Below, in pieces: positions 32,112 through 56,678 of a DNA stretch of 64,000 nt. Position numbers and translations under genes: made by a program. Positions within the stretch are counted from its first letter, which is position 1. Each line of letters starts with the position of its first letter. The stretch is from assembly GCA_031265235.1 (NCBI GenBank), contig JAISCX010000002.1:22939-86938 (forward strand). The letters run 5' to 3'. The notes under the pieces are model-generated. The model worked only from the letters and a program-made list of their open reading frames with translations. It made no database searches and was not told the DNA's origin. This DNA comes from Rickettsiales bacterium. GTDB lineage: Bacteria; Pseudomonadota; Alphaproteobacteria; Rs-D84.

Positions 32112-32387
32112 TCACTTTATAACGGCGCTTTTAATCATGGTAATGTCTTCTTTTATTACATCCAGTTTTAATTGCAACTGACCCAACCCTGATTCCAGTG
32201 TCGCGACGCGCGATTCCAGCGCGGCGGCCCGCGCTTCCAATTTTTGAATGTCTGTCAGCGAAGAATCATGCTTGGCGGCCCAGTAAATCGCGGTTCCGAC
32301 GAATACTATCAGAAACCATGAATTGCGCAGCAGATCAAGCAGCGCGCCCGCCGCCGCCGGTCCCGTTTGTTTTATTTCCTTAACCAT
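32112..32387 (-). CDS. small membrane/coiled-coil protein (phage-like)
   Basis: One TM helix plus an ALESRVATLESGLGQLQ heptad coiled coil. Confidence 0.3.
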   Translation of the reverse strand: MVKEIKQTGPAAAGALLDLLRNSWFLIVFVGTAIYWAAKHDSSLTDIQKLEARAAALESRVATLESGLGQLQLKLDVIKEDITMIKSAVIK

Positions 32388-32601
32388 TTTTCCCTCTTTC
32401 TATCAATGCTTTCATCTGGTGAACCAGTGCCCTTTGCCCTTCCAGTGCGCGAAGCTGGGCTTCTGTTGCATCCGGTCCCAGAAAGCGTTCTATGGTAATA
32501 TCGCGCAGGTGGGCCATCACCCGCGCGCCGTCCGAACCGCGAAATGTTTTTGCGTATGATTGTTCAATATCCGTCATGATTGTTTCCTTTTTTGTTTGCA
32601 A
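32380..32601 (-). CDS. small hypothetical protein
   Basis: 73-aa ORF with overlapping start/stop with the downstream gene. Confidence 0.25.
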   Translation of the reverse strand: MQTKKETIMTDIEQSYAKTFRGSDGARVMAHLRDITIERFLGPDATEAQLRALEGQRALVHQMKALIERGKNG

Positions 32602-34465: not shown

Positions 34466-35839
34466 TTAAGCGTTCAGCAATTGTTCCGGTATGTGCATCG
34501 CGTTCGCCAGATATTCTATCGTTGCAGGTTTGTTGATAGAGTCCGCGAATCCCGCGGTGTCCGCCGCCGACAGCCATGATAGAATTTGCGCCGCGCGTTC
34601 GTCCGCGGCCAGCTGGGCGATCGGCGCTATATAGCACAGCCGCGCGTCAGAGTTCAGCGATATGGGATCAATGATTCCGCGGCGCGCCAATATCGCAAGT
34701 CCGCGTTCGCAAAGCGGCCGGATCAGTTCATGCAAAATTCGTCCATATGTCGCGCCCAGCACCCGCATCATGTCCGTATTTCGCGCGATGATTTCCGTTG
34801 CGGTCATCTCCTTGTCGGACAAAGCGCCAAGTCGGTCGGCAAGCAGCGCGTGGCGAATCCGCGCGCGCAGATCGGACAGCACCAGCTGCGATACATCAAA
34901 ATCCGCGCCGGAACGCAGCGGGGTCAGACCGCTGGAACCGACGGCTTTCGGAATAATGGCGCCGGGCGTCAGGTTGATGTTGGAAAGGTTTATTACGCCG
35001 TCGTCGTCCGCCTGCCAGATTCCGCTGACCGCTATGGTTGCGTTTTTCAGGACTAATTCGACCACCTTGTTCGCAGTCTTGATATCGGGCAGCGCGCGCA
35101 TGACCGGGCTGCGGCCGTATGCTTCGCCGGCCGCCGCCGACCAGCGGAAAATCAGATACGGGCACTGTTCGAACCGGCCGTTCGCGACAATATTGTTTTC
35201 CATTTCGCCATCGGTATCTATCCATGCGGAAAAATTAAATCCATTCGCGGCCGACTGAACGCATTGCACCAGTCGAAGCTGCGTTTCCGGATTTTGCTTA
35301 ATGCCGTCGGCCAGATTTTTTGGCGGGGTCCATGACGGATATTTTTCCAAAACGTCCGCCGCGGACATCGACGTGGTGTGAAATATTGCCGTCAAATCGC
35401 CCGGCCCGTTGCGCAGGACGGAAATATCCGTCATGGGTATCGCGGTAAAGTTAAACGCGCTTGTGGCAGCAATGGGGTTTTCCGAAAAGAACAGGCATGC
35501 GGTCCCAAGAATCGCCATATCCAGATAGCATTGATGAATCGTGGTGTAAAAATTAGAATCGTTCAAATGACGGCGCAGCGCTGTTGTCGCCGCATCCGGG
35601 TCTGGCGATAATTCGGAAGCGCGCGCCAGCGATACCCAACAGGATTCCGGCGGGGTAAGCAGGCTGAACATATTCGCGGCCAGCATATCCACGGCGTCGG
35701 CGGCCGTTGCGTCAAACAGCCGCGCGTTGTCATCATCGGTCGCAGGCATGGTATATCGCGCGCATTCGGCCCATCGGCGCATGACTGCATCCCGTCCGGC
35801 AAGCGATTGTTTGTAAAGGTTTTGTAAATTTTTGTTCAT
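34466..35839 (-). CDS. T7-like head-to-tail connector (portal) protein
   Basis: N-terminal pattern R..W..CARYTMP...LFD..AADAVDMLAANMFSLLTPPESCWVSL parallels T7 gp8 ERLKNDRAPYETRAQNCAQYTIP...LFP..W. Confidence 0.65.
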   Translation of the reverse strand: MNKNLQNLYKQSLAGRDAVMRRWAECARYTMPATDDDNARLFDATAADAVDMLAANMFSLLTPPESCWVSLARASELSPDPDAATTALRRHLNDSNFYTTIHQCYLDMAILGTACLFFSENPIAATSAFNFTAIPMTDISVLRNGPGDLTAIFHTTSMSAADVLEKYPSWTPPKNLADGIKQNPETQLRLVQCVQSAANGFNFSAWIDTDGEMENNIVANGRFEQCPYLIFRWSAAAGEAYGRSPVMRALPDIKTANKVVELVLKNATIAVSGIWQADDDGVINLSNINLTPGAIIPKAVGSSGLTPLRSGADFDVSQLVLSDLRARIRHALLADRLGALSDKEMTATEIIARNTDMMRVLGATYGRILHELIRPLCERGLAILARRGIIDPISLNSDARLCYIAPIAQLAADERAAQILSWLSAADTAGFADSINKPATIEYLANAMHIPEQLLNA

Positions 35840-39839: not shown

Positions 39840-41408
39840 ATGGAAAACACGAACCTTAATTTTTCCCCAAAGACATTGCCAAGCAATCTAGAGGCTGAAC
39901 AGGCGGTTCTGTCCGCGATTCTGATGAACAACCGCGCGCTGGAACGCGTGTCGGAATTCTTAAAGCCCGATCATTTCACGCATCCCGCGCATCGGGAAAT
40001 TTATCGCCTGATGGAACGGCAATTCGCCGCCGGATTTCCCGTTGACGCGATCACAATCAGAAATTACCTGGAACAGCAGGGTGTTTTGGAATCCGTCGGC
40101 GGCATCGAATATCTGGCCCAGCTGGCCGCCGCAGGCGCGACCGTTGTAAACGTTGAACAATACGGCCGCATAATTTATGAAAACGCGATGCGCCGCGAAC
40201 TGATCCAACTGGGCGCCGAAATCACCGACTCGGCATACATTGAAGACTTGGACAAGCCTGTCCAGACACAGATAGAGCACGCGGAACAGAAATTATTCGA
40301 ACTGTCCGCGAATGGCGAGATTGACAGAGGGCCCATGGAAATGGGCACGGCGCTTCGCGCTGCACTGGAAGAAGCCGAAATCGCATACAAGGCGGACGGC
40401 AAGCTGTCGGGACTGACCACCGGCCTGCGCGATCTGGACAAGTCGATCAGCGGACTGCATAAATCAGACCTTGTTATTGTTGCCGGCCGGCCCGCGATGG
40501 GAAAGACCACGGTTGCGATGAATATCGCATTTAATGCGGCGAATGCGATTATGGCAGGTCGCGCGAATCCCAAATACAAGGGCGCGGTGATATTTTTCAG
40601 CCTTGAAATGTCATCGTCGCAATTGGCTGCCCGCGTGCTAAGCAGCCAATCCAAGATTTCCACCAGTTCCATGCGTCACGGCACGATCAGCGATGAAGAT
40701 TTTCTTAAAATGTCCCAGTATTCCGACGCGCTTTCCAAAGTGCCGCTGTTTTTCGACGATACGCCGGGCATGTCCGTGCCGATGATGCGGACGCGCGCGC
40801 GGCGTTTGTCGCGGAAATTCGGCGGGGTATCTCTGATTGTAATCGACTATTTGCAACTGATGACGGCGCCCGGCGGACGGCGCCCAGACAACCGCGTGAA
40901 CGAGCTGTCTGAAATCACCCGCAGCCTGAAAATGTTGGCAAAAGAACTGGACGTGCCGATTATCGCCTTGTCGCAACTGTCGCGTTCCGTTGAAAGCCGC
41001 GATGACAAACGCCCGTTGCTGTCGGATCTTCGCGAATCCGGGTCGATTGAGCAAGATGCGGATATTGTGATATTCACTTATCGCGAAGAATATTATCTGC
41101 AAGGACGCGATCCTGCGGAATCAGGGGGCGAACATGCGGAACGGTTCGTTTTAACCAAACAGGAAAATTGGAAAAAGCGCATGGAAGAATCCCGTGGCAA
41201 GGCCGATCTGATTATCGGCAAAAACCGCCATGGCAAGCCTGAAACAGTGCGCGCCAAATTCAGCGGGGAATACAGTCTGTTCAGCGATCTGGATGAATTT
41301 GAATCGCGCGGCGGGGATAATTCGTTCGGCGCGGACCCGCAATATTCTGCACCGCCGGCCGCTGCGCAATCCGGTCCGAACATGGACGCAGTCCCGGATG
41401 ATTTCTAA
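39840..41408 (+). CDS. dnaB: replicative DNA helicase DnaB (with unusual ~50-aa C-terminal extension)
   Basis: LEAEQAVLSAIL N-domain, Walker A GRPAMGKTT, RecA-like core; Ser/Pro-rich tail. Confidence 0.8.
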   Translation: MENTNLNFSPKTLPSNLEAEQAVLSAILMNNRALERVSEFLKPDHFTHPAHREIYRLMERQFAAGFPVDAITIRNYLEQQGVLESVGGIEYLAQLAAAGATVVNVEQYGRIIYENAMRRELIQLGAEITDSAYIEDLDKPVQTQIEHAEQKLFELSANGEIDRGPMEMGTALRAALEEAEIAYKADGKLSGLTTGLRDLDKSISGLHKSDLVIVAGRPAMGKTTVAMNIAFNAANAIMAGRANPKYKGAVIFFSLEMSSSQLAARVLSSQSKISTSSMRHGTISDEDFLKMSQYSDALSKVPLFFDDTPGMSVPMMRTRARRLSRKFGGVSLIVIDYLQLMTAPGGRRPDNRVNELSEITRSLKMLAKELDVPIIALSQLSRSVESRDDKRPLLSDLRESGSIEQDADIVIFTYREEYYLQGRDPAESGGEHAERFVLTKQENWKKRMEESRGKADLIIGKNRHGKPETVRAKFSGEYSLFSDLDEFESRGGDNSFGADPQYSAPPAAAQSGPNMDAVPDDF

Positions 41409-42237: not shown

Positions 42238-42382
42238 TATCAAAGGGATGATCATTTCTTGAAAACATAAGTTCACTTGGCAAAAAAAAGCTTAGAAATC
42301 CAACCTTTTTCAAATTTTCGTCCTGGTCCAAGCCAAACTGTCCCGTTTTTATCGTTTCTGTTTTATAAATAAAGGCTTAACA

Positions 42383-42784: not shown

Positions 42785-42788
42785 ATTT

Positions 42789-43610: not shown

Positions 43611-43630
43611 TTCAAAGATTGCCGGTTTTA

Positions 43631-43652
43631 TGCGCCGTATGGCGCATTTTTT
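43631..43652 (+). terminator. intrinsic terminator
   Basis: tgcgcc-gtat-ggcgca hairpin plus T6. Confidence 0.6.
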
Positions 43653-44580
43653 ATTCCCAGCCCCGTGATTCTGCCAATTCCTTTAAAAAGTTGGTATCGG
43701 AAAGCAAAGAATTTACGGCATAGCTTTCAAGTTCCAGCGGATTTCTGCGGTAATAATCCGGGTCCAGTTTTTTCGGAATATAATTCTTCCTGCTTAAGTC
43801 CGTCATTGTAACAGACAGGGATGCTTTCTTGAATTTTTGATACCGGTGATTGGTTTCGTGCGCGGCGTCTATTACTGCAAGATTTCCGTCCGTATAGTTT
43901 TTGGTTCCCCCGAAATTATAACTGTCGTTCCAGTAATACATGGCCGAATATCCGGTCTGTTTGGACAGGTCTTCAAATGAAAAAGCCCATGTGGAATCTA
44001 ATTGGCGCGCTTTGGCCATTCTATGCGATAGTTCCATCAGCAGTTTTTCTTTTTCTGTGCCGCCAATGTTTTCGTAATTTTTTGCCTGCCGATAAAGGTC
44101 ATGGTCAAACAGGGTGAATATTTCATTTTTTATCGTCTGCGCGTTCGCATCGGCGGCGCGCCAGTCATAATTTTCGACCAGCTTGTCTATCACGCTTCTT
44201 CTCTTATCAAGCGTTGCCCGAACCAGTTGTTTTTTTACATCGGCAATGTTATTTTCAGCGTTGTGTCGCGCGGACAGTTTTTTTGATAATTTCGGTTTTT
44301 TATGCAGCAGGTCAAGCTTTTTATCGTCCAATTGATCAAGCGCCGCAGTGTTGTCAATCCCGGTTTTGGATGACATTGCGATAAGATCGTTCTGTTCCCG
44401 ATCGATTTTTTCAAATTTTTTCACATCGCGTGATTTGTTTATCTTTTTAAGATCCCAAAGTGAATCGCCGATTTTCGCATTTTGCCTGATTTTCATCCTT
44501 TGATTTATCAATTCGGCCATCGCATTGCGGTCAAACGCAATCAGGTCGGATTCCTTTGAAGAAATGTTTTCTTGTTCTGT
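43651..44580 (-). CDS. hypothetical protein with HExxH motif (possible Zn-metallopeptidase)
   Basis: AAHETNHRYQ; K/D-rich N-terminal half; start uncertain (track ORF runs to 44649). Confidence 0.3.
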   Translation of the reverse strand, partial: TEQENISSKESDLIAFDRNAMAELINQRMKIRQNAKIGDSLWDLKKINKSRDVKKFEKIDREQNDLIAMSSKTGIDNTAALDQLDDKKLDLLHKKPKLSKKLSARHNAENNIADVKKQLVRATLDKRRSVIDKLVENYDWRAADANAQTIKNEIFTLFDHDLYRQAKNYENIGGTEKEKLLMELSHRMAKARQLDSTWAFSFEDLSKQTGYSAMYYWNDSYNFGGTKNYTDGNLAVIDAAHETNHRYQKFKKASLSVTMTDLSRKNYIPKKLDPDYYRRNPLELESYAVNSLLSDTNFLKELAESRGWE

Positions 44581-44702
44581 CATGATAAACATTATAACAG
44601 AAACCTTGCGATTCCAGAACCTTGAATTTTTTTGTTGCCTTTTTCGCAAATGTTGACTAAGATTCTGTCAAGAATTGACAACAATTGACAAGGGAGCACA
44701 CA

Positions 44703-45722
44703 ATGGCATGGGAAGAAATCATTTTTCCAAACAATATCCGCAACATTCGCCTTTCAAGGGGAATGAAGATGACCGCTGTCGCAAAAAAGGCCGGTCTTTC
44801 GCTTTCCGCGATGTCCAAAGTTGAAAAGGGTGTCCGCCGCTTGAACCAAAAACAGCTGTTGACGCTGTGCGGCATATTGAATTGCAAACTTTCCGATATA
44901 TTTATCAAGGAATCCGACGAAGTTGCCGGCGCATGGCAAAGCGAAATGCAGCGGAGATTATCCGACAATGAAATGTCCGGCCTTAAAATATTCGGCTCTG
45001 GCGTGCGGTTTCTTCGCAAGAAAAAGGGGCTGACCATCGCCCAGGCTGCGAAAGATTCCAAAATGACCCTGTCTGTTTATCATAAAATAGAAGTGGGCCA
45101 GCGCGAAGTTTACGAAGATGAAATCGGGAACCTGGCAAAAGCGCTTGGCAAGACTACGGACGGAATGTTCAAAACAATTGCAGAACTTTATGAATCCGGA
45201 GAGTTGTCAAAACAAATCAGCAAGGTTGAAGAGAAAGTTCGCAGCGTTCTGGTGCCCAATAGTCCGAATGCCGGGCATGGCATCCAAGGCGCTTTGTATG
45301 GGGCAAAGATTTACGAATCCGCGCGCAAGAAACTGGTGCCTGTTTTCGGCACGCCTTCTGAAAAGAACATCATTTTCAAAAAAACCGATGAAAAAATGAT
45401 TGTCGCGCCGCTCAGTCTAGAAGGCAATCCTGGAATTTACGCCATAATTCCGAATGTTCGCAGACTTGGCAATATGTTTCCCGCGCGTTCGTATCTGTTT
45501 GTTAATCCCGACGCGGTTGCGCAACCTGGCGATTTGGCGGTTGCATTTGCAGAAGACTTTGAAAGAATAGAACCTGATGCGAAAACGCATGCGTCGGTCG
45601 TAATGGTCCGCGAAGACGCCAAGGGAAAGCTCTATGGCCAGATGGCGGGACCCGATGAAAAAATTCCGGTTTCCAATAATGGCGGCAGACTGCATAAAGT
45701 CGTGCAGGTGGTGATAGAGTGA
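44703..45722 (+). CDS. CI/LexA-like repressor with tandem XRE HTH domains and a C-terminal S24-like domain
   Basis: Two HTH_XRE segments (IRNIRLSRGMKMTAVAKKAGLSLSAMSKVEKG; VRFLRKKKGLTIAQAAKDSKMTLSVYHKIEVG) plus a ~150-aa C-terminal domain. Confidence 0.5.
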   Translation: MAWEEIIFPNNIRNIRLSRGMKMTAVAKKAGLSLSAMSKVEKGVRRLNQKQLLTLCGILNCKLSDIFIKESDEVAGAWQSEMQRRLSDNEMSGLKIFGSGVRFLRKKKGLTIAQAAKDSKMTLSVYHKIEVGQREVYEDEIGNLAKALGKTTDGMFKTIAELYESGELSKQISKVEEKVRSVLVPNSPNAGHGIQGALYGAKIYESARKKLVPVFGTPSEKNIIFKKTDEKMIVAPLSLEGNPGIYAIIPNVRRLGNMFPARSYLFVNPDAVAQPGDLAVAFAEDFERIEPDAKTHASVVMVREDAKGKLYGQMAGPDEKIPVSNNGGRLHKVVQVVIE

Positions 45723-45826: not shown

Positions 45827-46477
45827 ATGAAAGAGAAAAATTCCATCATAGCAGCGCGTTTGTTGAATTTGTATCGTTCCGCGCATGTAATAGACGGCGG
45901 CTGGCGCGCTGTTAATGCGGTCTTTATTTCCGACGCGAACGCAGATGTTTTGGAAGAATTGAAAAAATTGCCGAATGGCGGAAAGCTTGCCCAGCATATA
46001 AGAAACCTGCAAGACGGCAAAACGCCGGTGAACTCGATCTCTCATGAATTGATGCCATACGGCGGCATGATGGAATCCGCGCCGGTTGACGGGGATGACG
46101 CCCCTACTGGAATATCGGATGATGATTTAAAAGAGATAGAATCCGCGCTTGAAAATTTTAAACCGGATCAAGAGCATTTGGATGCGATTCGCGGGTTGCC
46201 ATCCGTCCGTCAATTTGGCGACCGCTGGCTGGCGGGAATTCGCGTGACAATCGCCGGCCGGCCGGATTTGCTGGACAAATGGCGTATAGTTTACAGCGCC
46301 GACCGGGCGTTTTCGCTGTGGTCGCGCGCAAATGAAATATTATCTTGGACGCCTTCGGCGCGCACGCGCGCCGAAGTCCAGGCGGACATGCCGGAATACG
46401 AAACATATCTGCCAATGTTTGGCGATGCCGGGAAAGAAATGCTTGTAAAGCTTCGCGCGTTCATCAGCAGCATGTAA
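45827..46477 (+). CDS. hypothetical protein
   Basis: 216-aa ORF preceded by RBS-like GGAGAG. Confidence 0.35.
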   Translation: MKEKNSIIAARLLNLYRSAHVIDGGWRAVNAVFISDANADVLEELKKLPNGGKLAQHIRNLQDGKTPVNSISHELMPYGGMMESAPVDGDDAPTGISDDDLKEIESALENFKPDQEHLDAIRGLPSVRQFGDRWLAGIRVTIAGRPDLLDKWRIVYSADRAFSLWSRANEILSWTPSARTRAEVQADMPEYETYLPMFGDAGKEMLVKLRAFISSM

Positions 46478-46562: not shown

Positions 46563-47162
46563 TCACGCGGTTTTATAAATCGTATCTTTCGTATGCGGCG
46601 TACCGATATAAATCATTGTGCCCAAAGGCGACAGGATGAAATCCAGTTCGCGCAGACGCTCTCTCAGCTTTTCACGTTTTTGCGCGGTGTTGCAGGTATT
46701 CGGAACTTCTACGTCGTCGCAGATAATCAGGTCCGAACGCATGCCTGTGATGTTACCGTTGATACCTTGGCAAATTATGGAAGGTTCGCGAATGCCGGGC
46801 GGACGATTTATGGTCAGCCTGTGCCTCCCCCATTCTTTTTTGACGGCGGGCAACATGTCGCGGCAAAACTCGTGATTTTCCAAGATGTGCTTTATATGAG
46901 ACACCATGCGCGATGCCAGATTTGTTTCTGCGGATAAAATCATGATCCGCGCGTGCGGCCGCATGCACAGAATCCATGCGGCAAAAATGCCGACAACGGT
47001 TGATTTTCCAGAATGCCGGAATGCCGCCAAAAGGGCTCGGCGTGGCTCGGCGTCCGAAGATTCCACCAAAAATCGCAGAATATCCTTATGATGCGCGGGC
47101 GTTGCGAACCCGATCAGCTCGTTCCATGAATTTAAAAAATTTAAAGCGGAAGAATAATGCAT
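46563..47162 (-). pseudogene. T7-like terminase large subunit, N-terminal ATPase fragment
   Basis: Walker A AFRHSGKST, Walker B LIICDDVE, coupling motif IYIGTP; co-linear with T7 gp19 residues ~45-210; stops 2 codons after TIYK. Confidence 0.8.
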
Positions 47163-47167
47163 GAATA

Positions 47168-47737
47168 TTAAATATTCCCGTAATCGTCTTTGGTTTCATT
47201 TGCGGCGGGCTCTGTAATGCTGCCGTAATCGTTGATCAATTGGGGCAATGCGTCCGACAACACGGTCACCAGATTGTTATAAAGTCCCAAAACTGCGCCG
47301 CCGCTCATTTTGTCCCTGATAGTGTCGTGCGCGTATTGAACTTGGGCCAGCGCCGTGTTCATAATGGCGATCACATTGTCATGAATGTTCTTCCATTCGA
47401 TCACGTCGATTTCGACTTCGTAAAGGTCGCGGAACGCTTCCAACAGAAAGTTGAAATCTGCGTTCAGCTGTTCCGGATCAATTTTCGCGGTCGGCTGGTA
47501 ATCTATGAACCTTTCCAGATTTATGCGGCGAAAAATATCGATTCGGGCGTTTTGCTCTGGCGCGGATGCAAAGCTGATGATTCCGCCGTGCATGTCTTCG
47601 GATGACGCAAGATTGTATTCCGATGGTTCAAGCAATTCTTCATTTATCGCAACGCGGATGTCGGCCGGCTGAAAGAATTCGAAATCGAATGCGAACTCGG
47701 CCTGGCTGCCGTCGGCGGCATAGGATATTTTATACAT
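47168..47737 (-). CDS. T7-like tail fibre protein, N-terminal (tail-attachment) domain only
   Basis: YAADGSQAEFAFDFEFF...RRINLERFIDYQPTAKIDPEQLN parallels T7 gp17 N-terminus YQLDGSNRDFNIPFEYL...RRVTSTTDRLVDF; 189 aa against ~550 aa in T7. Confidence 0.55.
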   Translation of the reverse strand: MYKISYAADGSQAEFAFDFEFFQPADIRVAINEELLEPSEYNLASSEDMHGGIISFASAPEQNARIDIFRRINLERFIDYQPTAKIDPEQLNADFNFLLEAFRDLYEVEIDVIEWKNIHDNVIAIMNTALAQVQYAHDTIRDKMSGGAVLGLYNNLVTVLSDALPQLINDYGSITEPAANETKDDYGNI

Positions 47738-47752
47738 GGTGGCGCCTTTGTT

Positions 47753-48103
47753 TTAATTCATAATTTTTTCAAAATTAGAAATAATCGATTTCAACAGATT
47801 GGTTTTTTTTAGCTTTCTCAGCTTGGATAGCTTGTCCATATTTGATCTTTTTTTATCATTGAACGGCTCTTCCGTTTCATCGCGCATGCGCCGCAGCACG
47901 GCTTCCTCTGTCATGCCTTTGCCGGTCATTCCGCCGGCGCCATAAGCTGCGCGTTGTTTCGCCAAAGCTTTTTTCACAAGATTTGTTTTTGCGGCTTCGT
48001 CGTTGGCGATCTGGTCCAGAACTTTTTGGCGTTCTTGTTTGATTTCTTTGTTTTCGTTTTTATTGCCCAAAATACTTTGAACATCGTTGGCAAGTTGTCC
48101 CAT
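47753..48103 (-). CDS. small basic virion protein (gp13-like internal protein?)
   Basis: Lys-rich ~115-aa ORF in the gp13 position. Confidence 0.25.
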   Translation of the reverse strand: MGQLANDVQSILGNKNENKEIKQERQKVLDQIANDEAAKTNLVKKALAKQRAAYGAGGMTGKGMTEEAVLRRMRDETEEPFNDKKRSNMDKLSKLRKLKKTNLLKSIISNFEKIMN

Positions 48104-48117
48104 TTTAAATCCTTTTT

Positions 48118-49857
48118 TTAAATTGAATATCTTCCTTCTGCCGTGACGGATAAAATTGTGCAGGGCAGGGGTTCCGAGCCTTCTATTTCCCACAGTGGCT
48201 GCATGGCGGCGGCGTTCGTCCCAAGCAGCGATATGGAAACATCGCCGGAATATCCCGGGTTTTCTGGTTTCTGAACTTCGTTCGGAAGCGCTGCGCGAAA
48301 TGCCTGGGGCCCGATTTTGAAAAACATAGACTTTGTTTCCAAAACGCGCGCGGATATTTTTGTAAGACGAATTTTTTTCAATGGATGGCCAGATGCGAAC
48401 AGCGGCATGCCACTGGCTGCAAACGCGAATCCGAATCCGCCGGAATCGTTCGCTGCGGCATTTGAAAATTTTTCAACAAACGTTCCGATGTCGCGTGCGA
48501 CGATAACAAATATTTCATCATTCATAACCGCGACGGATTTGAATTCGCCCTGGGTTTTGTATTCGGCCCATGCGGATATTGATAAGGCCGCTATTTTTGT
48601 AAGCACAGCGATGCTGCCGCCCTGCATGGCGACGAACAGCCTGTGCGATTCGTCGTGATATGCGATTGACGTCGGCGTTTTCATCAAGTGCGAAGACAAT
48701 GCGCACAAATCCGGCGCACTGTAATTTTGCCCAAGGTCGTCCAGAATCAGTTCGCGGATTTCGGTATTTGTGCGGGACACGAAAACAGTGCATCCTTCTA
48801 TCTTTTGCGGCGGCAGATACCTGTCCGCGCAGGATCCTACGGACGTGTGCTGTTTTATGTCTATCGTTGCCGGCGTCAATGGCTTTGCGGTGATCGCCCA
48901 TTCGCCGCTGGTGGTTAGTATCTGCAGGTTTTCGGATGACGCGACGGTGCATATCTGCTGTCTTGCGCCGGAAAGCAAGGTTAAAAATATCGCCTCGTCA
49001 TCCAGCCCCGTGCCGGCGTCAAAATTCATGTGATCGCCGACTTTCGACATCCAAACGCCGCACGGCCAGTCGCGCGATCCTCCGAATACCAGCCGGTCTT
49101 GATGGAATGTAATGCTGCGCGGCCATCCGCGGCGCGCGGAAAATGCGGCTTCTTTCCAGTCCGACACGGACGCGCCGGGTGGCGAATATGCTCCGTTTGT
49201 CTGTGCCACGACGACGGTTGGACTGGCATATTCCGTAACCAGCCATTGCCTGCCCATGAACATCAGCGTGCCGCCAACGTTCGCGGGTTTCCAAAAGGCG
49301 CGGTCAGCAGTGATGGTCGCATAGTTGTTGCCAGACGGATGGGTCGCGATATCCAGCTTCACGTCATCCGAATCGTCGAATCTTATGAACGGAATATTTT
49401 CGGTCATATCGTCATTGCGCGAAAATTCAAAGTCATTTAGGGAAAATGAATTTTCGCCAGTTTTGCGCAAGACCACAGGACGCTTTCCCGGATGGACGAA
49501 AATCATTGTGCCGAATCGCTGGGCGTATTGCACGTTCTTCAATTCGTCTGCGGACCAAGGTGCCGACAAATCCTGGACGAAAGAATCGCCGTTATAAATT
49601 TTTATGTGCCCCGCATGCATTACCAGCAGATAGTTTTCGTTGTCGCCGACCGACATCGGCACCAGCATTGAATCCGCGTTTGTTTCAAACATACGGACGG
49701 TGCCCGCCCGCCGCGATATCGCGCCGGACTTTAGCACGTCCATATTTACCAGGCGCGACAATCCCCGCGCCGCCGCGGCCATATCGCCGCGCGCAAAGAA
49801 TTCATGCGCCATTTCGCCATTCGCGAAAGAATTCTGGGTATGCATAAATTTTCCCAT
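48118..49857 (-). CDS. T7-like tail tubular protein B (gp12-like)
   Basis: 579 aa immediately downstream of the gp11-like gene; N-terminal similarity pattern to T7 gp12. Confidence 0.45.
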   Translation of the reverse strand: MGKFMHTQNSFANGEMAHEFFARGDMAAAARGLSRLVNMDVLKSGAISRRAGTVRMFETNADSMLVPMSVGDNENYLLVMHAGHIKIYNGDSFVQDLSAPWSADELKNVQYAQRFGTMIFVHPGKRPVVLRKTGENSFSLNDFEFSRNDDMTENIPFIRFDDSDDVKLDIATHPSGNNYATITADRAFWKPANVGGTLMFMGRQWLVTEYASPTVVVAQTNGAYSPPGASVSDWKEAAFSARRGWPRSITFHQDRLVFGGSRDWPCGVWMSKVGDHMNFDAGTGLDDEAIFLTLLSGARQQICTVASSENLQILTTSGEWAITAKPLTPATIDIKQHTSVGSCADRYLPPQKIEGCTVFVSRTNTEIRELILDDLGQNYSAPDLCALSSHLMKTPTSIAYHDESHRLFVAMQGGSIAVLTKIAALSISAWAEYKTQGEFKSVAVMNDEIFVIVARDIGTFVEKFSNAAANDSGGFGFAFAASGMPLFASGHPLKKIRLTKISARVLETKSMFFKIGPQAFRAALPNEVQKPENPGYSGDVSISLLGTNAAAMQPLWEIEGSEPLPCTILSVTAEGRYSI

Positions 49858-49874
49858 TGTTTTTTCCTTTTTTT

Positions 49875-50402
49875 CTAGAATCGCGCGCTGATCAGTGAAA
49901 AGTTGGCAATGTCGGCGGCGGACGCCATCGTGCTATCGATGAATTTGGCCGCGCGCAGTTCCGAATCATAAAGCGCCGCCAAAGTGTTGAATGCGTTTTG
50001 ATTGTCTGTTAGCGGCATGCAGAATTCCATGGCAAGCTTTGTGACAGCGGCGGATATGAAGTAAGACGGATAATTTTCAACGCCGACGCGCGCAACCCCG
50101 TTTATTGAAACCTTTTCTCCGCTGGCAATAATTCTGTTGCCGGTTATCTCATAACGTGCGGCATCGCATGACATCACGCGCAGGACATCTGTCGGTATCA
50201 GAAAATTCCCGTCCAAAGTTTTGACAAGGTCGTATTTTTTGACGGCGAATCTCCATGGGTGCGCGGATAATAAAGAATCGGTTATGTTGTCGAACAGTGT
50301 TCTTGCCAATTGCGCGCCCGCGGTGTCCTCGTTGAAAGATTGGATCGGCTTTTCGCCTATTTTAAGCAAAGCCATGGAACATAAGTCTATTTTGGTGGGC
50401 AT
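49875..50402 (-). CDS. T7-like tail tubular protein A (gp11-like)
   Basis: ALLKIGEKPIQSF...ARTLFDNITDSLLSAHPWRF parallels T7 gp11 ILASIGEPPVSTL...ARRILNKINRQIQSRGWTF. Confidence 0.55.
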   Translation of the reverse strand: MPTKIDLCSMALLKIGEKPIQSFNEDTAGAQLARTLFDNITDSLLSAHPWRFAVKKYDLVKTLDGNFLIPTDVLRVMSCDAARYEITGNRIIASGEKVSINGVARVGVENYPSYFISAAVTKLAMEFCMPLTDNQNAFNTLAALYDSELRAAKFIDSTMASAADIANFSLISARF

Positions 50403-50495
50403 TAAAAACTCCGTTTTTTTAATGGTAAGTGAAAAGCAACACGCAATACAGGTTCGGAATTTGAATCAAAAGTCCAATCTATCTGTTACTTGTCG

Positions 50496-50726
50496 CTATC
50501 CTAATATTGCCACGGCGATATCGGGATTTGTCGTAACGACTCTGCGAATCGCCGTGTTGTCGATTGAATTGACTAATATGATGTCGCCGGCATTCATCAG
50601 TGTCCGGACATCATTGAAATATCCGTCCGTGCATATTGCGCCCAGCGATACGTGTTCCGCATAGTGCCAAAGGGTGAACCCGTTCGCATATGCAATCACA
50701 GACAAATTCTTATTTGCAAAAGCCAT
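50496..50726 (-). CDS. small hypothetical protein
   Basis: 76-aa ORF between the capsid and gp11-like genes. Confidence 0.2.
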   Translation of the reverse strand: MAFANKNLSVIAYANGFTLWHYAEHVSLGAICTDGYFNDVRTLMNAGDIILVNSIDNTAIRRVVTTNPDIAVAILG

Positions 50727-50743
50727 GAAAAATCCTTTTTTTT

Positions 50744-50848
50744 AGTGATTAGTGCAAGTGTTAGTGCAAGTGCAAGCAGTGAATATGAAGATACATGTTT
50801 TTATCATGCATCCTTGATCCACTTACACTTGCACTTGCATTTACACTA
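50744..50848. repeat. palindromic heptamer-repeat element, family B (third copy)
   Basis: ttagtgcaagtgttagtgcaagtgcaagcagtg ... ccacttacacttgcacttgcatttacac. Confidence 0.65.
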
Positions 50849-51658
50849 TTCAGCGCAGCTGATTTTCACAATCCCGGCATTGTCGATCAGGCATGCGCCT
50901 TGGGACATGCTGTTGCATACGAAATGCGCGGCGCGCTCGCCATTCCAAGAAATGTCGGTTTTGACATCCTGGCCGGATGCGTGCCCAACGGCGGACGCGT
51001 GATACATAAAACAGTCGCGCACGCCGTCGTCTTCCGGCAGGCCGTTGTGCAAAAGCCAATTGACCCCAAGCCATTTCTTGGTTTCAAATCCGCCGACCAG
51101 CGCGCCGGTTCCGACATAGTCCGCATTGGTGAATTCTTCCAATGACAGCAGTTCGTTCCACTGGTGCACTCCGACGACGCAGAATCTGCGGCCGTCGTCA
51201 GGAATATCTTTTTCGTTCAGATATTCGACGGCGGAAAGAATCAGATCTTTGGAAAGACCCGTAGCTCCGGTGCCGGCAACTGTCAAAGCGCCCGACATCG
51301 CATTGATGATCAGTTCATCCGTTTTGCGACCAAGCGCGTACGCGCCGGCGGATGCGACGACGCGGCGTTCATCGATGTTGGTTTTTAATTCATCCAGGGC
51401 ATCGACCCAATCGCCGGCGTAATAGTCGGCCAGCTGGCATTCGACCGGCGTGTGCTGCAGGTTCATGACAGGAACCAGTTCATGGCGTTCTTTGGTTGCG
51501 GCGGTGCCTTTGCCGACTTTTTGAAATACGGTGCTGGCGCCCGTGACACCGTTCTTGGAACGCACGGTAGAGCGTAATTTTGTTCCGGTCTGCTGGTATG
51601 CCAAATGCACGTCAGCTTCGAACTGTTTTACAAATGCATGATCTATGGTTAAAGACAT
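50846..51658 (-). CDS. T7-like major capsid protein (gp10 family)
   Basis: HAFVKQFEADVHLAY...RSTVRSKNGVTGASTVFQKVG parallels T7 gp10 ALFLKVFGGEVLTAFA...RHMVRSISSGKSAQFPVLG. Confidence 0.7.
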   Translation of the reverse strand: MSLTIDHAFVKQFEADVHLAYQQTGTKLRSTVRSKNGVTGASTVFQKVGKGTAATKERHELVPVMNLQHTPVECQLADYYAGDWVDALDELKTNIDERRVVASAGAYALGRKTDELIINAMSGALTVAGTGATGLSKDLILSAVEYLNEKDIPDDGRRFCVVGVHQWNELLSLEEFTNADYVGTGALVGGFETKKWLGVNWLLHNGLPEDDGVRDCFMYHASAVGHASGQDVKTDISWNGERAAHFVCNSMSQGACLIDNAGIVKISCAE

Positions 51659-51710
51659 TTTTATTTCCTTTGGTTAATGGACACGGTATTTTGCAATGTC
51701 CGGTTAATAA

Positions 51711-51739
51711 AAAACCGGCGCTGCGATGGCGCCGTTTTT
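51711..51739. terminator. bidirectional hairpin (aaaaccggcgc-tgcgatg-gcgccgtttt) upstream of the capsid gene
   Basis: GC stem with A- and T-runs on both sides. Confidence 0.5.
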
Positions 51740-51821
51740 AAAGTTTAGCATTGCGGTTATGCGACATTCCGTCGCGCCGCTTTGCAAAACACGCGGGTCC
51801 AAAGGATTATCCGCGAATGAG

Positions 51822-51958
51822 AAAGTGAAAGAATGAAACAGTGAAAAGATAAAAAATTGCGGATGCTGCTGATTTGCGGCGACATGCTAACTATTTTACT
51901 GGGAAAAATTGCTTTGCAATTTTGCGAATTCACTCTTTTACTTTTTCACTCTAAAATA
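51822..51958. repeat. palindromic heptamer-repeat element, family C (AGTGAAA/TTTCACT)
   Basis: gagaaagtgaaagaatgaaacagtgaaaag ... attcactcttttactttttcactc with ~90-nt spacer; related copy at 56985-57098. Confidence 0.65.
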
Positions 51959-51960
51959 AA

Positions 51961-51983
51961 AAACCCGCGAACGCGGGTTTTTT
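51961..51983. terminator. bidirectional intrinsic terminator (aacccgcg-aa-cgcgggtt) flanked by A/T runs
   Basis: Lies just downstream of the K/A-rich gene on the minus strand. Confidence 0.55.
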
Positions 51984-52001
51984 ATTAGCATTGCAAAGAA
52001 A

Positions 52002-52451
52002 TTACCAAGCTTTTCTTGCGGCCGGCTTTTTCTTCGCCGGGGCTTTTTTTGCAACCGGTTTCTTTGCCGCAGGTTTTTTCACCGCAACTTTCTTAACGGC
52101 CGGTTTTTTTGCAACCGGCTTTTTCGCTGGGGCTTTTTTCGCAACCGGTTTCTTCGCCGCAGGTTTTTTTGCGACCGGCTTTTTCTTCGCCGGGGCTTTC
52201 TTCGCGATCAGCTTTTTTGCGACCGGGGCCTTTACGGCCAGCTTTGCGACTTTCTTCGCGGCGGGTTTTTTCGCCGGGGCTTTTTTCGCGACCGGATTTT
52301 TGACGGCCACTTTCTTCGCAACGGCTTTTTTCACCGCCGGCTTTTTAGCGGCCGGTTTTTTCACCGCTGGCTTTTTCGCCGCAGGCTTTTTAGCGACCGG
52401 TTTCTTTGCCGCAGGTTTCTTCGCAGTGGGTTTCAAGAATGAAAATGCCAT
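52002..52451 (-). CDS. histone H1-like Lys/Ala/Pro-rich protein (AKKPAAKKPVAKK repeats)
   Basis: AGGAG RBS before MAFSFLKPT; about 25 pentapeptide repeats encoded by 15-nt tandem DNA repeats; the plus-strand F/A/G-rich track ORF is its antisense. Confidence 0.55.
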   Translation of the reverse strand: MAFSFLKPTAKKPAAKKPVAKKPAAKKPAVKKPAAKKPAVKKAVAKKVAVKNPVAKKAPAKKPAAKKVAKLAVKAPVAKKLIAKKAPAKKKPVAKKPAAKKPVAKKAPAKKPVAKKPAVKKVAVKKPAAKKPVAKKAPAKKKPAARKAW

Positions 52452-52552
52452 TCTTCCTCTCCTTCTCTTTTGTTTTGATAGAACAAAATTTTTTTGTTCT
52501 TGGTACAATTGTATCTGAAACGAAAAAAATAGTCCAGAACATTTTGTAAAAA

Positions 52553-53206
52553 TCACGAATAAAGTTTTTTAAATCCGCTTTCGATCTTTCGTATGTATTC
52601 AGGATTGCGATCGCGCCAATATTTTGGATCGCGCATCATATCGCGGAGGTCATTGTCAGACAAATTCCCGCATTCGTTTTTTGACGTTGAAACGGATGGC
52701 TCTATATTTTGCATCATGGCAAAGATGCTGCGGATTCCCGCGGATGACGCGCATAACGATTCGTAAGTGTCTTTGGGCAAAAATTTTTCCGCAAAAGCGT
52801 CTATCGCCGTTAACGATTCCCGCATTTTTTCTTCGCTGCCGAAAAAGCTTTTTAATTCGAACATCGCGTCTGCAACATATCCCGATTGAAATATTTCCGA
52901 CAAGGCGGGTTCGAAAAATTCATTCGCGATTTCGTAAATTTTTTCAACCTGCCGCGCATTAAGTCCCGCTTCTTGAAATTTTTTCCGAATCATATCGTCA
53001 TCATACAAAGGATGCATAGGATATCCCGATATATCTTCCGGCACCCCGATTGCGCGGTTGAACCTGGCTTTGGAATCATCGTCCGCGTCATCGTTTGGCA
53101 ATGACACCATTGTTCCGATTTTCTTTTCAAGTTCGGAATATGATTTGATCAACGCCTCTGGGTTAAGCGTTCCGTCCTGGTTTTGGAATTTTTCTGGGAT
53201 TTGCAT
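52553..53206 (-). CDS. acidic protein, candidate scaffolding protein
   Basis: 217 aa, D/E-rich, positioned upstream of the capsid gene as gp9 is in T7. Confidence 0.35.
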   Translation of the reverse strand: MQIPEKFQNQDGTLNPEALIKSYSELEKKIGTMVSLPNDDADDDSKARFNRAIGVPEDISGYPMHPLYDDDMIRKKFQEAGLNARQVEKIYEIANEFFEPALSEIFQSGYVADAMFELKSFFGSEEKMRESLTAIDAFAEKFLPKDTYESLCASSAGIRSIFAMMQNIEPSVSTSKNECGNLSDNDLRDMMRDPKYWRDRNPEYIRKIESGFKKLYS

Positions 53207-53403
53207 TCTTTCTCCTTTGATAGTTCGTTATTGACGCTTGCACGCAAGAAATAAATCCCGCCAAGCATGAAAATTGTTTGCAGCATATTGAATATATCTG
53301 TGTCCCCGGACAGATAAGTGGCGACTGCGGACAATATCCCGGCGGCAGCAGTCACGTATGTGCGGTATCCGGACAAGAATCCGCCTTTGATAATTTTGTT
53401 CAT
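53149..53403 (-). CDS. holin-like small membrane protein
   Basis: Two hydrophobic helices plus a basic C-terminal tail; adjacent to the endolysin. Confidence 0.35.
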   Translation of the reverse strand: MNKIIKGGFLSGYRTYVTAAAGILSAVATYLSGDTDIFNMLQTIFMLGGIYFLRASVNNELSKEKECKSQKNSKTRTERLTQRR

Positions 53404-53476
53404 GGGAAAACCTTTTCTAATAATAAGCAATCAGTAACTGACAATCGGTTGTCGCGCAAAGCGCATCAAAAGACCG

Positions 53477-53932
53477 CTACAAATAAAACAGCAATCCGTC
53501 CACGTCTGCGACGTATCCCATTGCCGCCGCCCACTCTGGTATATTATCTGCGTGGTGAAATCTTGTTGCGCCGGTGACAGCGTCTTTTAATTGTCCGCCC
53601 GTCATGCGTCTGACGGTGCGCAGGCAAATTTGAAATTCGGGCGTTCTGCTGTCCACGAACAAATCTTTATGCCTTTTGGATTCGCGTCGCAGCGATTTGA
53701 AGATATTTTCATCCTGTGCGATATCGGAAAGCGTTCGTCCCGTCTTGTTTGACAGGTTTGCGACCATGGACGCCAATGCTTCGACCACGCGCAAGCTGGA
53801 TGCAAGCGTTTCGGCATAAATGGCGCGCGCCAATTTATAGGTTGTAATCTTTGCGTCATCATCATTTTTAACCAGCGTCAATTGCGGCTGCGGCTTTGCT
53901 GTTTTCGATCGGGTCATTGGCATGGCGTTCAT
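53477..53932 (-). CDS. SleB-type cell-wall hydrolase (putative endolysin)
   Basis: LARAIYAETLASS resembles the conserved SleB/Hydrolase_2 motif ARTIYGEARGE; 151 aa. Confidence 0.5.
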   Translation of the reverse strand: MNAMPMTRSKTAKPQPQLTLVKNDDDAKITTYKLARAIYAETLASSLRVVEALASMVANLSNKTGRTLSDIAQDENIFKSLRRESKRHKDLFVDSRTPEFQICLRTVRRMTGGQLKDAVTGATRFHHADNIPEWAAAMGYVADVDGLLFYL

Positions 53933-53960
53933 GTTGTTTCCTTTTTTTGTGTAAAAAATA

Positions 53961-53985
53961 CCCGCAAGGACTTGCGGGTTGAAAT
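53961..53985 (-). terminator. intrinsic terminator after mltB (minus strand)
   Basis: acccgcaag-tcc-ttgcgggt followed by a T-run on the minus strand. Confidence 0.55.
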
Positions 53986-54103
53986 TTTTGCAATAAAAAA
54001 CCCCGACCGGGGACGATATAAACTTTCACTGTTGATGTATATCATCATATCATAAATCACGCTGCAAATCAAGCGATAATTTCTTGCCGCCCCGCTGCGC
54101 GGA

Positions 54104-55160: not shown

Positions 55161-56678
55161 CTAGAACGCATACTTTACCCCGATATGCAAGCCGAAAGAT
55201 TGCCATTTCGCATATTTCAGGGAATCATTAAGCTTTTCCGTGTGCGGATCTATGGTTTCAAGCTTTGGATAACAATTCGCCACCGCATAAGGATCGCACT
55301 CAATTCCCGATGGATCAATGAACTTATACTGGCCTTCGCTATCCTTTGCGTATGTTGTATACCCGGATATATACAGTTCTCCGCCTATCTTTCCGACATA
55401 GAAATAATTAGTATCGGCCTTGATTGACAACTGCATGCGTTCTGAAATCTGGTATGTGTATTCCATTTCCGCTTGATACGAATATGCACCGTTGCTTCCT
55501 TTGTCTATAAAGCTGGGATTTTGCTGCCAGTCCGTGCGGTTAGGCCATATTCCTTCGGACGAGTATTCAGGCATCCCAAACTGGATATAGAACCGCAGCT
55601 TGTCTGCAAATGTCATCTGCTTTTCGATTTCCAAGCCGAGATATACCCCCCCCCACGTGGTATTGTAAATATGCGTGACACCGGAAACGATTATTGGGCC
55701 GTCTCCGCCGATAATCACGCAGTCGCCGGCTCCCACGCCCCATGGAACAAAAGTTCCATTGGCGATGGAATTCTGCCAGTTTATGGTGTTTATGAATCCG
55801 CCGTCTATATTTACCGAACCATCCGGGTTTGTTTGGGCAACCATGATGTCTTCGGGCGACAGACATACTTGATAAAATCCGTCCGGTGCCGGTTCGTTCT
55901 GTTGCACGGTTTTATAATTGCCCGTATTATCGCCGAATACATAATCCCCGCGATCAGTAAGCAATGGCAGATATATTCCCGGGTTTGGATAAATATGGTT
56001 GGACATTTCTAAATTATGGTGAAAGATTTCGTATCCGATTGATGGGGAAAACTTCCACCCGGCGATATCCCAGATATTTTTCGCGCCGAACCCCAGCCGC
56101 AAATAATCTGTCTTTCCGGACTGTTCGCCCATAGATACCGTGAATATCCCGGCTTTCGGCTGGGATTGGTCGTATGGCTCCAAGTCATAGTCGTATGAAA
56201 GCGGCCCGCCGCCATCAACCATGCCATAGCGGTATTCGCCCATCACGAACAGATTATAATCACGAATGTTAAAATTATGATCCAAACGCGCGCCGATTTC
56301 ATTAATGAGCATGTCGTCCCATTTCAGGATGCTATTCACGCTGGTCTTGAATTCAAAGCTTGCAAATCTTCGTGCATAATCCGCGGACAGCAGCCAATCC
56401 GGCTGCACGGGAATTCCGATGCCGCCGGGCGTCATCGCATACGACGCGACGCCAAAGGGAGAATTTCCGGCGCTGCCGGGAATATATTGATTTTGCGCTG
56501 CCGCCCTTGGCACTTGATAGCTATAAGATCGTGTTCCGACAATTGTGCTGCCGCTGGACGTTTGGACAGCTTGGGCCGGCCGGTGCCCGCTTTGATAGTA
56601 TTCGGGCGTCCCTTCCTGCGCGGCAAAGGCGGCAAAGGGCAAAAGAACACCTGCAAAAATAGACAAAAGTGCTTTCAT
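55161..56678 (-). CDS. outer-membrane beta-barrel protein (unknown family)
   Basis: Signal peptide, alternating amphipathic strands, C-terminal ...GVKYAF. Confidence 0.45.
   Translation of the reverse strand: MKALLSIFAGVLLPFAAFAAQEGTPEYYQSGHRPAQAVQTSSGSTIVGTRSYSYQVPRAAAQNQYIPGSAGNSPFGVASYAMTPGGIGIPVQPDWLLSADYARRFASFEFKTSVNSILKWDDMLINEIGARLDHNFNIRDYNLFVMGEYRYGMVDGGGPLSYDYDLEPYDQSQPKAGIFTVSMGEQSGKTDYLRLGFGAKNIWDIAGWKFSPSIGYEIFHHNLEMSNHIYPNPGIYLPLLTDRGDYVFGDNTGNYKTVQQNEPAPDGFYQVCLSPEDIMVAQTNPDGSVNIDGGFINTINWQNSIANGTFVPWGVGAGDCVIIGGDGPIIVSGVTHIYNTTWGGVYLGLEIEKQMTFADKLRFYIQFGMPEYSSEGIWPNRTDWQQNPSFIDKGSNGAYSYQAEMEYTYQISERMQLSIKADTNYFYVGKIGGELYISGYTTYAKDSEGQYKFIDPSGIECDPYAVANCYPKLETIDPHTEKLNDSLKYAKWQSFGLHIGVKYAF

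Follow-up and report, generated by a model that had tools for sequence, protein, structure and literature searches.

The locus described here raises the question of whether a set of phage structural and lysis genes lying in a bacterial chromosome is the wreck of a prophage or a unit that its host has kept in use. The locus occupies part of a 64,000-nt stretch of DNA (the window, to which positions refer unless another locus is named) from a metagenome-assembled genome (MAG) labelled 'Rickettsiales bacterium' (GenBank assembly GCA_031265235.1, the 90-kb contig JAISCX010000002.1, positions 22,939 to 86,938; locus tags LBK26_). An earlier note on this DNA had described a degraded T7-like module and left two readings side by side, a decaying prophage and a domesticated particle-forming unit; it is the latter that the evidence favours. 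We consider it probable, at roughly 0.6, that the module is a vertically inherited, podovirus-type analogue of a gene transfer agent (GTA) that has become fixed in small-genome gut Alphaproteobacteria.

Reading along the minus strand from 54.1 to 46.5 kb, the window carries lysis, head and tail genes followed by the N-terminal piece of the gene for the large terminase, TerL (terN), and the C-terminal piece (terC) lies about 9 kb beyond it. Genes of rpoB and rpoC size stand at the start of the window, and nrdD, bamA, uppS, rseP, plsX, proS and mdh are found elsewhere in it. A search against the E. coli genome gave no match, and the window is therefore not enterobacterial. The claim that a bacterial chromosome here holds the structural and lysis genes of a T7-like module was borne out: the minus-strand open reading frames (ORFs) that had been named lie where they had been placed and their families hold, and profile comparison with T7-type families identified scaffold, capsid, tail tubular protein A, nozzle, portal and TerL. 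These assignments show that the predicted products make up a complete T7-type head, a short tail in which a fibre stub is optional, a large terminase of two polypeptides, and lysis proteins.

The module is conserved in a clade of gut Alphaproteobacteria

A capsid search across one genome per species recovered about 35 species-level gut alphaproteobacterial MAGs, whose capsids are 70-87% identical; for the related loci, about 20 kb per genome was available for comparison. Candidatus Enterousia and uncultured Alphaproteobacteria/Rickettsiales are the labels that these genomes bear. The samples were of rumen, goat, sheep, horse, termite and human origin, with bird also listed; one of the genomes is a closed chromosome of 958,618 bp. 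The order of genes in the clade begins with those for the endolysin, holin, scaffold, a lysine/alanine-rich protein, capsid, a 76-aa protein, the gp11-like and gp12-like tail proteins and a basic protein, followed by the fibre stub where it occurs and by terN. It continues with o216, o345 and dnaB on the opposite strand, and then with terC, the portal gene, a Bbp19-like gene and a gene for a transmembrane (TM)/coiled-coil protein. The ORF between scaffold and capsid, present in nearly every related genome, is 81-169 aa long and consists to about 88-94% of lysine, alanine, proline and valine. The 76-aa gene is present in all clade loci and also in phage and prophage relatives. Upstream, the host genes lipB, lpxI and a T2SSE ATPase gene are common to most clade loci.

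The window has several insertions of its own. Three tRNA genes separate terC from portal, and thyA and tmk set portal apart from the Bbp19-like gene; in addition, a gene for an AEP(TOTE) primase/helicase is inserted between terC and dnaB, and a tRNA-Asn gene with a low-GC island between dnaB and o345. Its left flank, with an SLT_2 gene and a Pom-like porin gene, also differs from that of its relatives. Despite these extra insertions, all module ORFs of the window are intact. The 76-aa, Bbp19-like and TM/coiled-coil genes, together with the regulatory leader and the RNA motif described below, had been overlooked in the earlier note.

Module genes are under purifying selection and have co-diverged with the host

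Module ORFs are intact and of constant length in the clade (scaffold 217-219 aa, gp11 172-175, gp12 551-579, terN 197-212, terC 271-283). Across the roughly 35 species synonymous sites are near saturation, with a median dS (synonymous divergence) of about 1.2, and at such a distance neutral decay would have destroyed ORFs of this kind. Median pairwise ratios of nonsynonymous to synonymous divergence (dN/dS) were 0.07 for portal, 0.085 for terN, 0.09 for capsid, 0.17 for terC, 0.19 for gp11, 0.20 for gp12 and 0.24-0.33 for the scaffold, lysis and basic proteins, so that the module overall spans 0.07-0.33; the host genes dnaB and lipB, used for comparison, gave 0.09 and 0.17. Between the window and its closest relative (L001), dN/dS was 0.09-0.14. 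Moreover, protein distances of the module genes were correlated with those of lipB and dnaB (Mantel r 0.69-0.87, p=0.0005) to a degree similar to that of the two host genes with each other (r = 0.78). The GC content of the module equals that of the host, and GC at third codon positions is 0.555 in the module, 0.568 in the host and 0.40 in a real island; the island at 41.7-44.6 kb lies 10 points lower in GC.

These data show vertical inheritance of a phage-derived structural cluster and purifying selection on it, both of which were among the properties by which we tested for a GTA. Conservation, selection, co-divergence and composition taken together are the signature of a domesticated element and not of decay or recent integration. 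The description of the module as degraded, or as a decaying prophage, is contradicted by the same observations. A decaying or cryptic prophage without a function of its own might be kept in the chromosome only through the essential or useful genes interleaved with it (dnaB and the regulators), and such a history would agree with a TerL in two pieces, with the host genes inserted in the module, and with the functions that were not found there (integrase, phage replication genes, the small terminase TerS, gp15/16 and a long fibre). However, structural ORFs that have stayed intact over this divergence, dN/dS values like those of host genes and invariant catalytic motifs in TerL largely refute such a history, which we regard as very improbable.

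TerL is encoded in two pieces around dnaB

The split terminase reported earlier proved to consist of two pieces indeed, but they are not the product of damage: the two genes form a conserved arrangement in which the catalytic motifs do not vary. In alignments with intact TerL, terN ends directly after motif III (GTPH..TIY) and the conserved block that follows is where terC begins; the break stands in place of a variable acidic loop and has cost no conserved residue. The terN product aligns to residues 49-211 of the 586 of a T7-type TerL and to the first half only of the Pfam ATPase-domain model, while terC holds the rest of the ATPase domain, with its RNaseH-like nuclease starting at about residue 107. 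Since the ATPase match of terN is partial and the nuclease starts inside terC, the cut falls within the ATPase fold. Walker A, Walker B with its catalytic Glu, and motif III in the N-terminal piece, as well as the nuclease motifs YWDP, E.NG.G and DDG.DA in the C-terminal piece, are invariant in 27-32 species. A search with terN returned 909 homologues, the best 120 of which are all about 200 aa long. The alignments show that the TerL gene was broken in a surface loop behind motif III of the ATPase and that each piece has kept its catalytic motifs.

In nearly all clade genomes dnaB lies between terN and terC, and in most of them the block of o216, o345 and dnaB fills the gap essentially without intergenic DNA. 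Specifically, in most genomes the distance between the terN and o216 stop codons ranges from -9 to +4 nt, and dnaB and terC start back to back with overlapping start codons (CATG), which indicates that the intervening block is embedded without spare DNA. The same split is found without dnaB in L020, where terN and terC are parted only by a 426-nt spacer, and in an unrelated 1.47-Mb contig, where the terN stop and the terC start overlap (ATGGGTGA) at the same protein position. The fission is therefore older than the insertion of the dnaB block. In the spacer of L020 (15240-15665 of that locus), a promoter of the TTGACA type is followed about 170 nt further on by a strong intrinsic terminator. 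The spacer, for which Rfam gave no match, may hold a small RNA gene. On the 1.47-Mb contig (L137/L138 6001-7441; ENA ERZ18545426/ERZ18545485) a basic coiled-coil gene lies upstream of the split TerL, capsid and tail genes are lacking within 6 kb, and the neighbours include Peptidase_M78, Beta_protein and OLD-like nuclease genes.

Other origins of the break were considered and rejected. An intein would have left extra residues, of which there are none, both pieces aligning to intact TerL up to the junction. An intron is contradicted by the lack of Rfam intron hits in the window and by the intervening genes being on the opposite strand, and an excisable element by the lack of direct or att-type repeats at the junctions. 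From their sequences, the two pieces would be expected to reassemble non-covalently into a working packaging ATPase/nuclease. Naturally split enzymes include split dnaE and rpoC1/rpoC2 in cyanobacteria; as in those, one ancestral gene is now two conserved ORFs that retain every motif. TerL differs from them in having no split intein, in a break that falls inside the ATPase fold, and in the essential host gene that lies between the pieces on the other strand.

A promoter, terminators and a structured RNA point to read-through control

About 30 of 31 related loci, the window included, have a TTGACT-N17-TGTGATATTATA-type promoter at the equivalent place before the lysis genes. It is followed by about 20 conserved nt and then by one to three leader terminators, which are present in all related loci except L020. 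A further terminator follows the 76-aa gene in 24 of 30 loci, about 20 nt ahead of gp11, so that the genes from gp11 to terN could be transcribed only via read-through; within this stretch of about 3.3 kb there are almost no terminators. With a promoter that fires into tandem terminators and with internal terminators further on, expression of the whole set would need read-through, whether by antitermination or by attenuation. Such control has a precedent in the GTA cluster of Caulobacter, whose intra-cluster terminators likewise imply read-through and for which anti-termination control has been shown (PMC11150451).

The layout is also reminiscent of lambdoid late control, in which strong promoter, terminators within tens of nt, lysis genes and then morphogenesis genes follow one another. 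Lambdoid late operons are laid out as PR'-tR'-S-R..., and the module differs from them in that no Q-like protein or binding element was identified and in its clade-specific structured RNA and terminator before the capsid. Candidates for an antiterminator are o345 (which has its own conserved promoter), o216 and a 149-aa winged-helix-like protein encoded upstream in most genomes; all three are without similarity to Q. For o216, the AlphaFold2 model gave no informative fold match. We speculate that terC and portal are reached by read-through antisense to o216, o345 and dnaB.

The structured RNA lies in the capsid leader. Its structure was derived by eye from the same sequences that yielded the covariation figures, in which paired cells make up 87% (slid controls gave 32-49%), compensatory change is seen at 14 of 23 pairs and one hairpin covaries at every pair. 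A covariance model of the motif found one match per clade locus, always upstream of the capsid and including loci outside the model, and no match in the Rhodospirillales or viral relatives; there is no matching Rfam family. Directly after the capsid stop (50752-50846, minus strand), the window has a long imperfect hairpin of GTGCAA-type hexamer repeats. This hairpin is not conserved, the gap between capsid and next gene being about 35-60 nt in other loci.

Relatives of the module are podoviruses of a temperate type

The closest isolated phage is the Pelagibacter podophage Hodr EXVC031P (OQ414635), with 44% identity in the capsid and 31% in the portal. Its genes run in the order TerL, portal, scaffold, capsid, 76-aa, gp11, gp12, genes of 160, 784 and 1247 aa, and fibre; by position only, the 160-, 784- and 1247-aa genes occupy the place of T7 internal virion proteins (784 and 1247 that of gp15/16). 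Capsids of about 60% identity occur in elements of Rhodospirillales (Azospirillum, Niveispirillum, Inquilinus and others), which have a single-ORF TerL of 506 aa, a full fibre of 573 aa and a CI-type repressor with an S24 protease domain, and whose flanks differ between genera. The repressor, with its helix-turn-helix (HTH) and S24 domains, and the non-syntenic contexts make these elements look like mobile ancestors. Both Hodr and the Rhodospirillales elements share with the module its families and local order (portal, Bbp19-like, scaffold, capsid, 76-aa, gp11, gp12, small internal protein, fibre, TerL and lysis genes); they differ in their single-ORF TerL and full-length fibre, and the Rhodospirillales elements also in the S24-bearing CI and the variable contexts. 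In the Enterousia clade only the HTH domain of the repressor is left, as an 81-aa gene upstream of lipB. In Rhodospirillales elements and IMG/VR proviruses with an intact TerL (L033-L080, L094-L133) the span from CI repressor to endolysin is about 15-19 kb and contains no replication or integrase genes. These related elements might themselves be defective or GTA-like, though their positions differ between genera.

On the evidence of these relatives, the lineage of the module is a temperate branch of the T7 supergroup that has no RNA polymerase. The label T7-like therefore needs qualifying: it holds for the structural families but not for membership of the Autographiviridae in the strict sense. 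The T7 type is recognisable in portal, scaffold, tail tubular proteins A and B, the fibre N-terminal domain and TerL (for portal, scaffold, tail tubular proteins and TerL by PF12236, PF05396, PF17212, phrog_376 with the PDB nozzle 8ck1, PF22530, and PDB 8dgc and 4bij). Unlike T7, the module has no RNA polymerase, DNA polymerase, gp15/16 or gp18, its capsid belongs to PF19821, its order is rearranged with lysis genes first and portal last, and it is chromosomal and not lytic, with a sigma-70-type promoter ahead of it. It had been argued that, T7-like phages being virulent, a chromosomal remnant is unusual; with temperate-type relatives devoid of RNA polymerase as the nearest kin of the module, this argument for an intrinsic oddity is weak.

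Mobile-looking relatives with a CI repressor, and the listing of fragments of the clade locus as viral in IMG/VR, would fit a temperate podovirus that is still mobile and integrates at a preferred site beside dnaB. The properties of a prophage for which we tested were not found, however: there is no integrase in the conserved set, there are no att-like repeats at the module borders or the TerL junctions, and the CI homologue consists of the HTH domain only and lacks the S24 protease. Moreover, the dnaB inside the packaging gene is the host equivalog, the module co-diverges with lipB and dnaB, and its composition is fully host-like. We find a mobile podovirus scarcely credible at this locus.

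A probable gene-transfer-agent-like function and its alternatives

Among known systems, the GTAs of Rhodobacter (RcGTA), Bartonella (BaGTA) and Caulobacter (CcGTA) are close counterparts. Like these, the module is a fixture of an alphaproteobacterial chromosome and comprises genes for head, tail, terminase and lysis, with vertical inheritance, purifying selection and host-like composition, without integrase or phage replication genes in the roughly 20 kb compared per genome, and with a cluster that is interrupted or scattered among host genes. RcGTA descends from a long-tailed phage. The module differs in its origin from a T7-type podovirus (portal PF12236, tail tubular proteins A and B, T7-type TerL), in a TerL of two polypeptides, in that no TerS was found, and in its uncultured gut host clade, in which it is known so far from its genes.

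On the GTA-like reading, the strong promoter would fire into the tandem terminators ahead of the lysis genes, and read-through would switch on the whole set. The two TerL polypeptides would then assemble into the packaging ATPase/nuclease, and a subpopulation of cells would make DNA-filled particles and lyse. Since no TerS, gp15/16, integrase or phage replication genes were found, packaging would probably not be element-specific and the particles would be unable to propagate the element. More tentatively, we see as a possibility an independently domesticated family of podovirus-derived GTAs that combines a two-polypeptide motor flanking dnaB with read-through gating by way of an undescribed structured RNA. 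In its strongest version, late transcription would run antisense through o216, o345 and dnaB to terC and portal and would couple particle production to the shut-off of host replication.

Several observations weigh against a GTA-like function. The list of absent functions drawn up in the earlier note held good for the window, in which RNA polymerase, DNA polymerase, gp15/16, TerS and a long fibre are all lacking (no RNA polymerase-like ORF occurred among the ORFs scanned at 25.6-64 kb), and the conserved set, in the roughly 20 kb compared per related genome, has no integrase, phage replication genes or phage polymerases. Of the functions that T7 itself requires, TerS is lacking in the window and the conserved set, there are no large ORFs for gp15/16 between gp12 and the fibre or TerL gene in any clade locus, and the conserved set has no conserved receptor-binding protein. 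The fibre stub (dN/dS 0.16 where present) is absent in about one third of the clade species; it may act as an adaptor rather than being a remnant. A literature search for split terminases found no characterised functional precedent for a split inside the ATPase fold. Opposite-strand host genes (the tRNA genes, thyA/tmk, the AEP primase-helicase gene and the low-GC island) interrupt the module in the window and complicate a single-operon model. A promoter scan upstream of terC, inside dnaB, found none, although the same scan also misses the promoter of the essential dnaB and so tells nothing either way. No Q-like antiterminator or binding/pause element was recognised, nor could a fold be recognised in o216. 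That particles form, take up host DNA and transfer it is what we infer from the genes, which are all that is known of the system.

The gaps in the gene set fall exactly on TerS, ejection and fibre functions, as would be expected of a satellite-like element that obtains these from a helper phage, and a repressor-like HTH gene does lie upstream in most genomes. Against dependence on a helper, integrase, primase-replicase and excision functions are missing from the conserved set, and the module keeps a fixed position and co-diverges with its host over family-level distances. It also carries its own tail and lysis genes, in which it differs from the capsid-forming satellites known to us. We therefore think a satellite quite improbable.

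The lack of ejection proteins and conserved receptor-binding proteins has a second consequence, in that delivery to a recipient is not obviously possible. Together with the conserved position of the lysis genes at the head of the unit and the inclusion of a histone-like, DNA-condensing protein, this is what would be expected if the particle and lysis system had been domesticated for another use, such as altruistic lysis with release of DNA or nutrients, an anti-phage decoy or defence, or a killing particle. However, portal and both TerL pieces are among the most constrained genes, with ATPase and nuclease sites intact, which argues that DNA packaging itself is selected, and the tail adaptor and nozzle are constrained as well. 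A use other than transfer seems to us unlikely.

Domesticated phage particles are a known category, to which the module belongs in a form for which we found no description in the searchable literature. To our knowledge, only a handful of GTA lineages have been genetically defined, the alphaproteobacterial ones being of other phage ancestry. A literature search for a T7-like GTA in this clade found none, and a gut GTA preprint concerns Faecalibacterium. If the GTA-like reading is true, a short-tailed phage was domesticated independently across a lineage of gut bacteria with genomes of about 1 Mb, and a natural terminase works as two polypeptides split in the ATPase fold, which bears on the assembly of packaging motors. 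The locus further provides a new candidate for a cis-regulatory RNA, an essential replication gene that is, unusually, nested inside a phage gene, and concrete targets that can be tested by mapping virome reads in studies of how capsids mobilise DNA in gut communities.

Features of the locus

Family assignments were made by profile searches (Pfam, PHROG, NCBIfam) and searches against PDB sequences, and are collected with the coordinates in Table 1. Of the lysis genes, the SleB-type endolysin of the earlier note stands as an endolysin, its SleB-type match being below threshold. For the holin-like protein, ORF and position are conserved, profile searches gave no family match, and the call comes from two hydrophobic segments in the sequence; its probable start is MNKII at 53403. 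The basic coiled-coil protein has its true start at MGQL..., within a conserved MGQ(L/I/V)VSDV start, and its prophage counterpart of 150 aa gave weak matches to internal-virion PHROGs. The gene for the TM/coiled-coil protein follows the Bbp19-like gene in other loci as well, its start codon overlapping the stop of the preceding gene; from its sequence the protein is possibly lysis-associated, weakly resembling spanin/XhlA. Two apparently conserved flanking ORFs were rejected as antisense artefacts, the real genes being those for the 81-aa CI-type HTH protein and the Bbp19-like protein.

Table 1. Coordinates of the module, its control elements and the genes embedded in it.
Feature	Position	Strand	Evidence and remarks
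Promoter, sigma-70-type, near consensus	54044..54072	-	TTGATT-17-TATGAT + TG extension; upstream of lysis genes
Two tandem intrinsic terminators (53995-54014 and 53953-53979)	53953..54014	-	Between promoter and endolysin start codon
Endolysin, 151 aa	53477..53932	-	phrog_938 7e-07; Hydrolase_2/SleB-like sub-threshold (E=0.043); dN/dS 0.31
Holin-like small membrane protein	53149..53430	-	Two hydrophobic segments, charged C-terminus; dN/dS 0.32; position conserved
Scaffold, 217 aa	52553..53206	-	PF05396 T7 capsid assembly protein 2e-06, above cutoff
Lysine/alanine/proline/valine-rich, histone H1/Hc2-like protein, 149 aa	52002..52451	-	PF07382 HC2 1e-18; start MAFSF...
Intrinsic terminator after lysine/alanine-rich gene	51958..51983	-	Terminators of scaffold-capsid interval conserved in clade
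Structured RNA motif, ~80 nt	51741..51818	-	Two helices each beside AUAA; capsid leader (L014 9866-9945)
Intrinsic terminator between RNA motif and capsid ribosome-binding site	51709..51734	-	
Major capsid protein, 270 aa	50846..51658	-	PF19821 2e-79; phrog_3437 1e-76
76-aa virion-module protein	50496..50726	-	phrog_18004 7e-11; between capsid and gp11; dN/dS 0.15
Tail tubular protein A, gp11-like adaptor, 175 aa	49875..50402	-	PF17212 Tube; phrog_394 1e-35
Tail tubular protein B/nozzle, gp12-like, 579 aa	48118..49857	-	phrog_376 2e-83; PDB 8ck1_A 'Tail Nozzle' 2e-28
Basic coiled-coil protein, 116 aa, possibly gp14-like	47753..48103	-	PF24072 T7_gp14 sub-threshold (E=0.037); gp13/14 position
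Tail-fibre N-terminal tail-attachment domain, 189 aa	47168..47737	-	PF03906 sub-threshold (0.0013); fibre PHROGs, residues 4-100 only
TerL N-piece (terN), 199 aa	46563..47162	-	phrog_38 2e-45; T7-type TerL 8dgc_E
o216, all-helical	45827-46477	+	Conserved in clade; convergent with terN; AlphaFold2 model pLDDT 87.5
o345, two HTH_3 domains and C-terminal domain	44685-45722	+	Conserved in clade; convergent with terN
Host replicative helicase dnaB	39840..41408	+	NCBIfam equivalog NF006606, 612 bits vs cutoff 540; fails phage_DnaB cutoff
TerL C-piece (terC), 281 aa	36537..37382	-	PF22530 T7 RNaseH-like; phrog_38 positions 473-705
Portal/head-tail connector	34466..35839	-	PF12236 5e-91; T7-type portal chains in PDB
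Bbp19-like small protein	32380..32577	-	PF25181 1.7e-11; adjoins portal in related genomes
91-aa protein, N-terminal TM and coiled coil	32112..32387	-	Weak family matches only; 55% identical to L014 counterpart

Neighbouring genes and other observations

The AEP primase-helicase gene (37429-39759, plus strand) encodes a 776-aa protein with a TOTE-conflict-type AEP primase (PF22548, 1e-74) and a ResIII/DEAD helicase. It lies between terC and dnaB only in the window genome and may be a defence or mobile-element gene. The tRNA-Asn gene and the low-GC island that follows it (41457-44650, GC about 0.39) look like a recent acquisition in the gap between dnaB and o345; the island holds a class-A beta-lactamase-like/penicillin-binding-protein-like ORF, a weakly nucleoside 2-deoxyribosyltransferase-like ORF and two ORFs without hits. 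A second low-GC stretch (15000-19000, 0.37-0.40) carries tRNA-Arg, tRNA-His and tRNA-Ala genes and unannotated ORFs.

A 324-aa glycine-rich protein (61508-62482, minus strand) was rejected as the receptor-binding protein, having only 35 homologues and not being conserved with the module; it matches PF21722 and tail-fibre PHROGs (4e-20), and one homologue, 90% identical, is found in a sister MAG. At the left flank of the module, a 505-aa outer-membrane protein (55161-56678, minus strand) matches the Protochlamydia Pom porin family (PF17251, 6e-11). A Pom-type porin is unusual for an alphaproteobacterium and may relate to a host-associated lifestyle.

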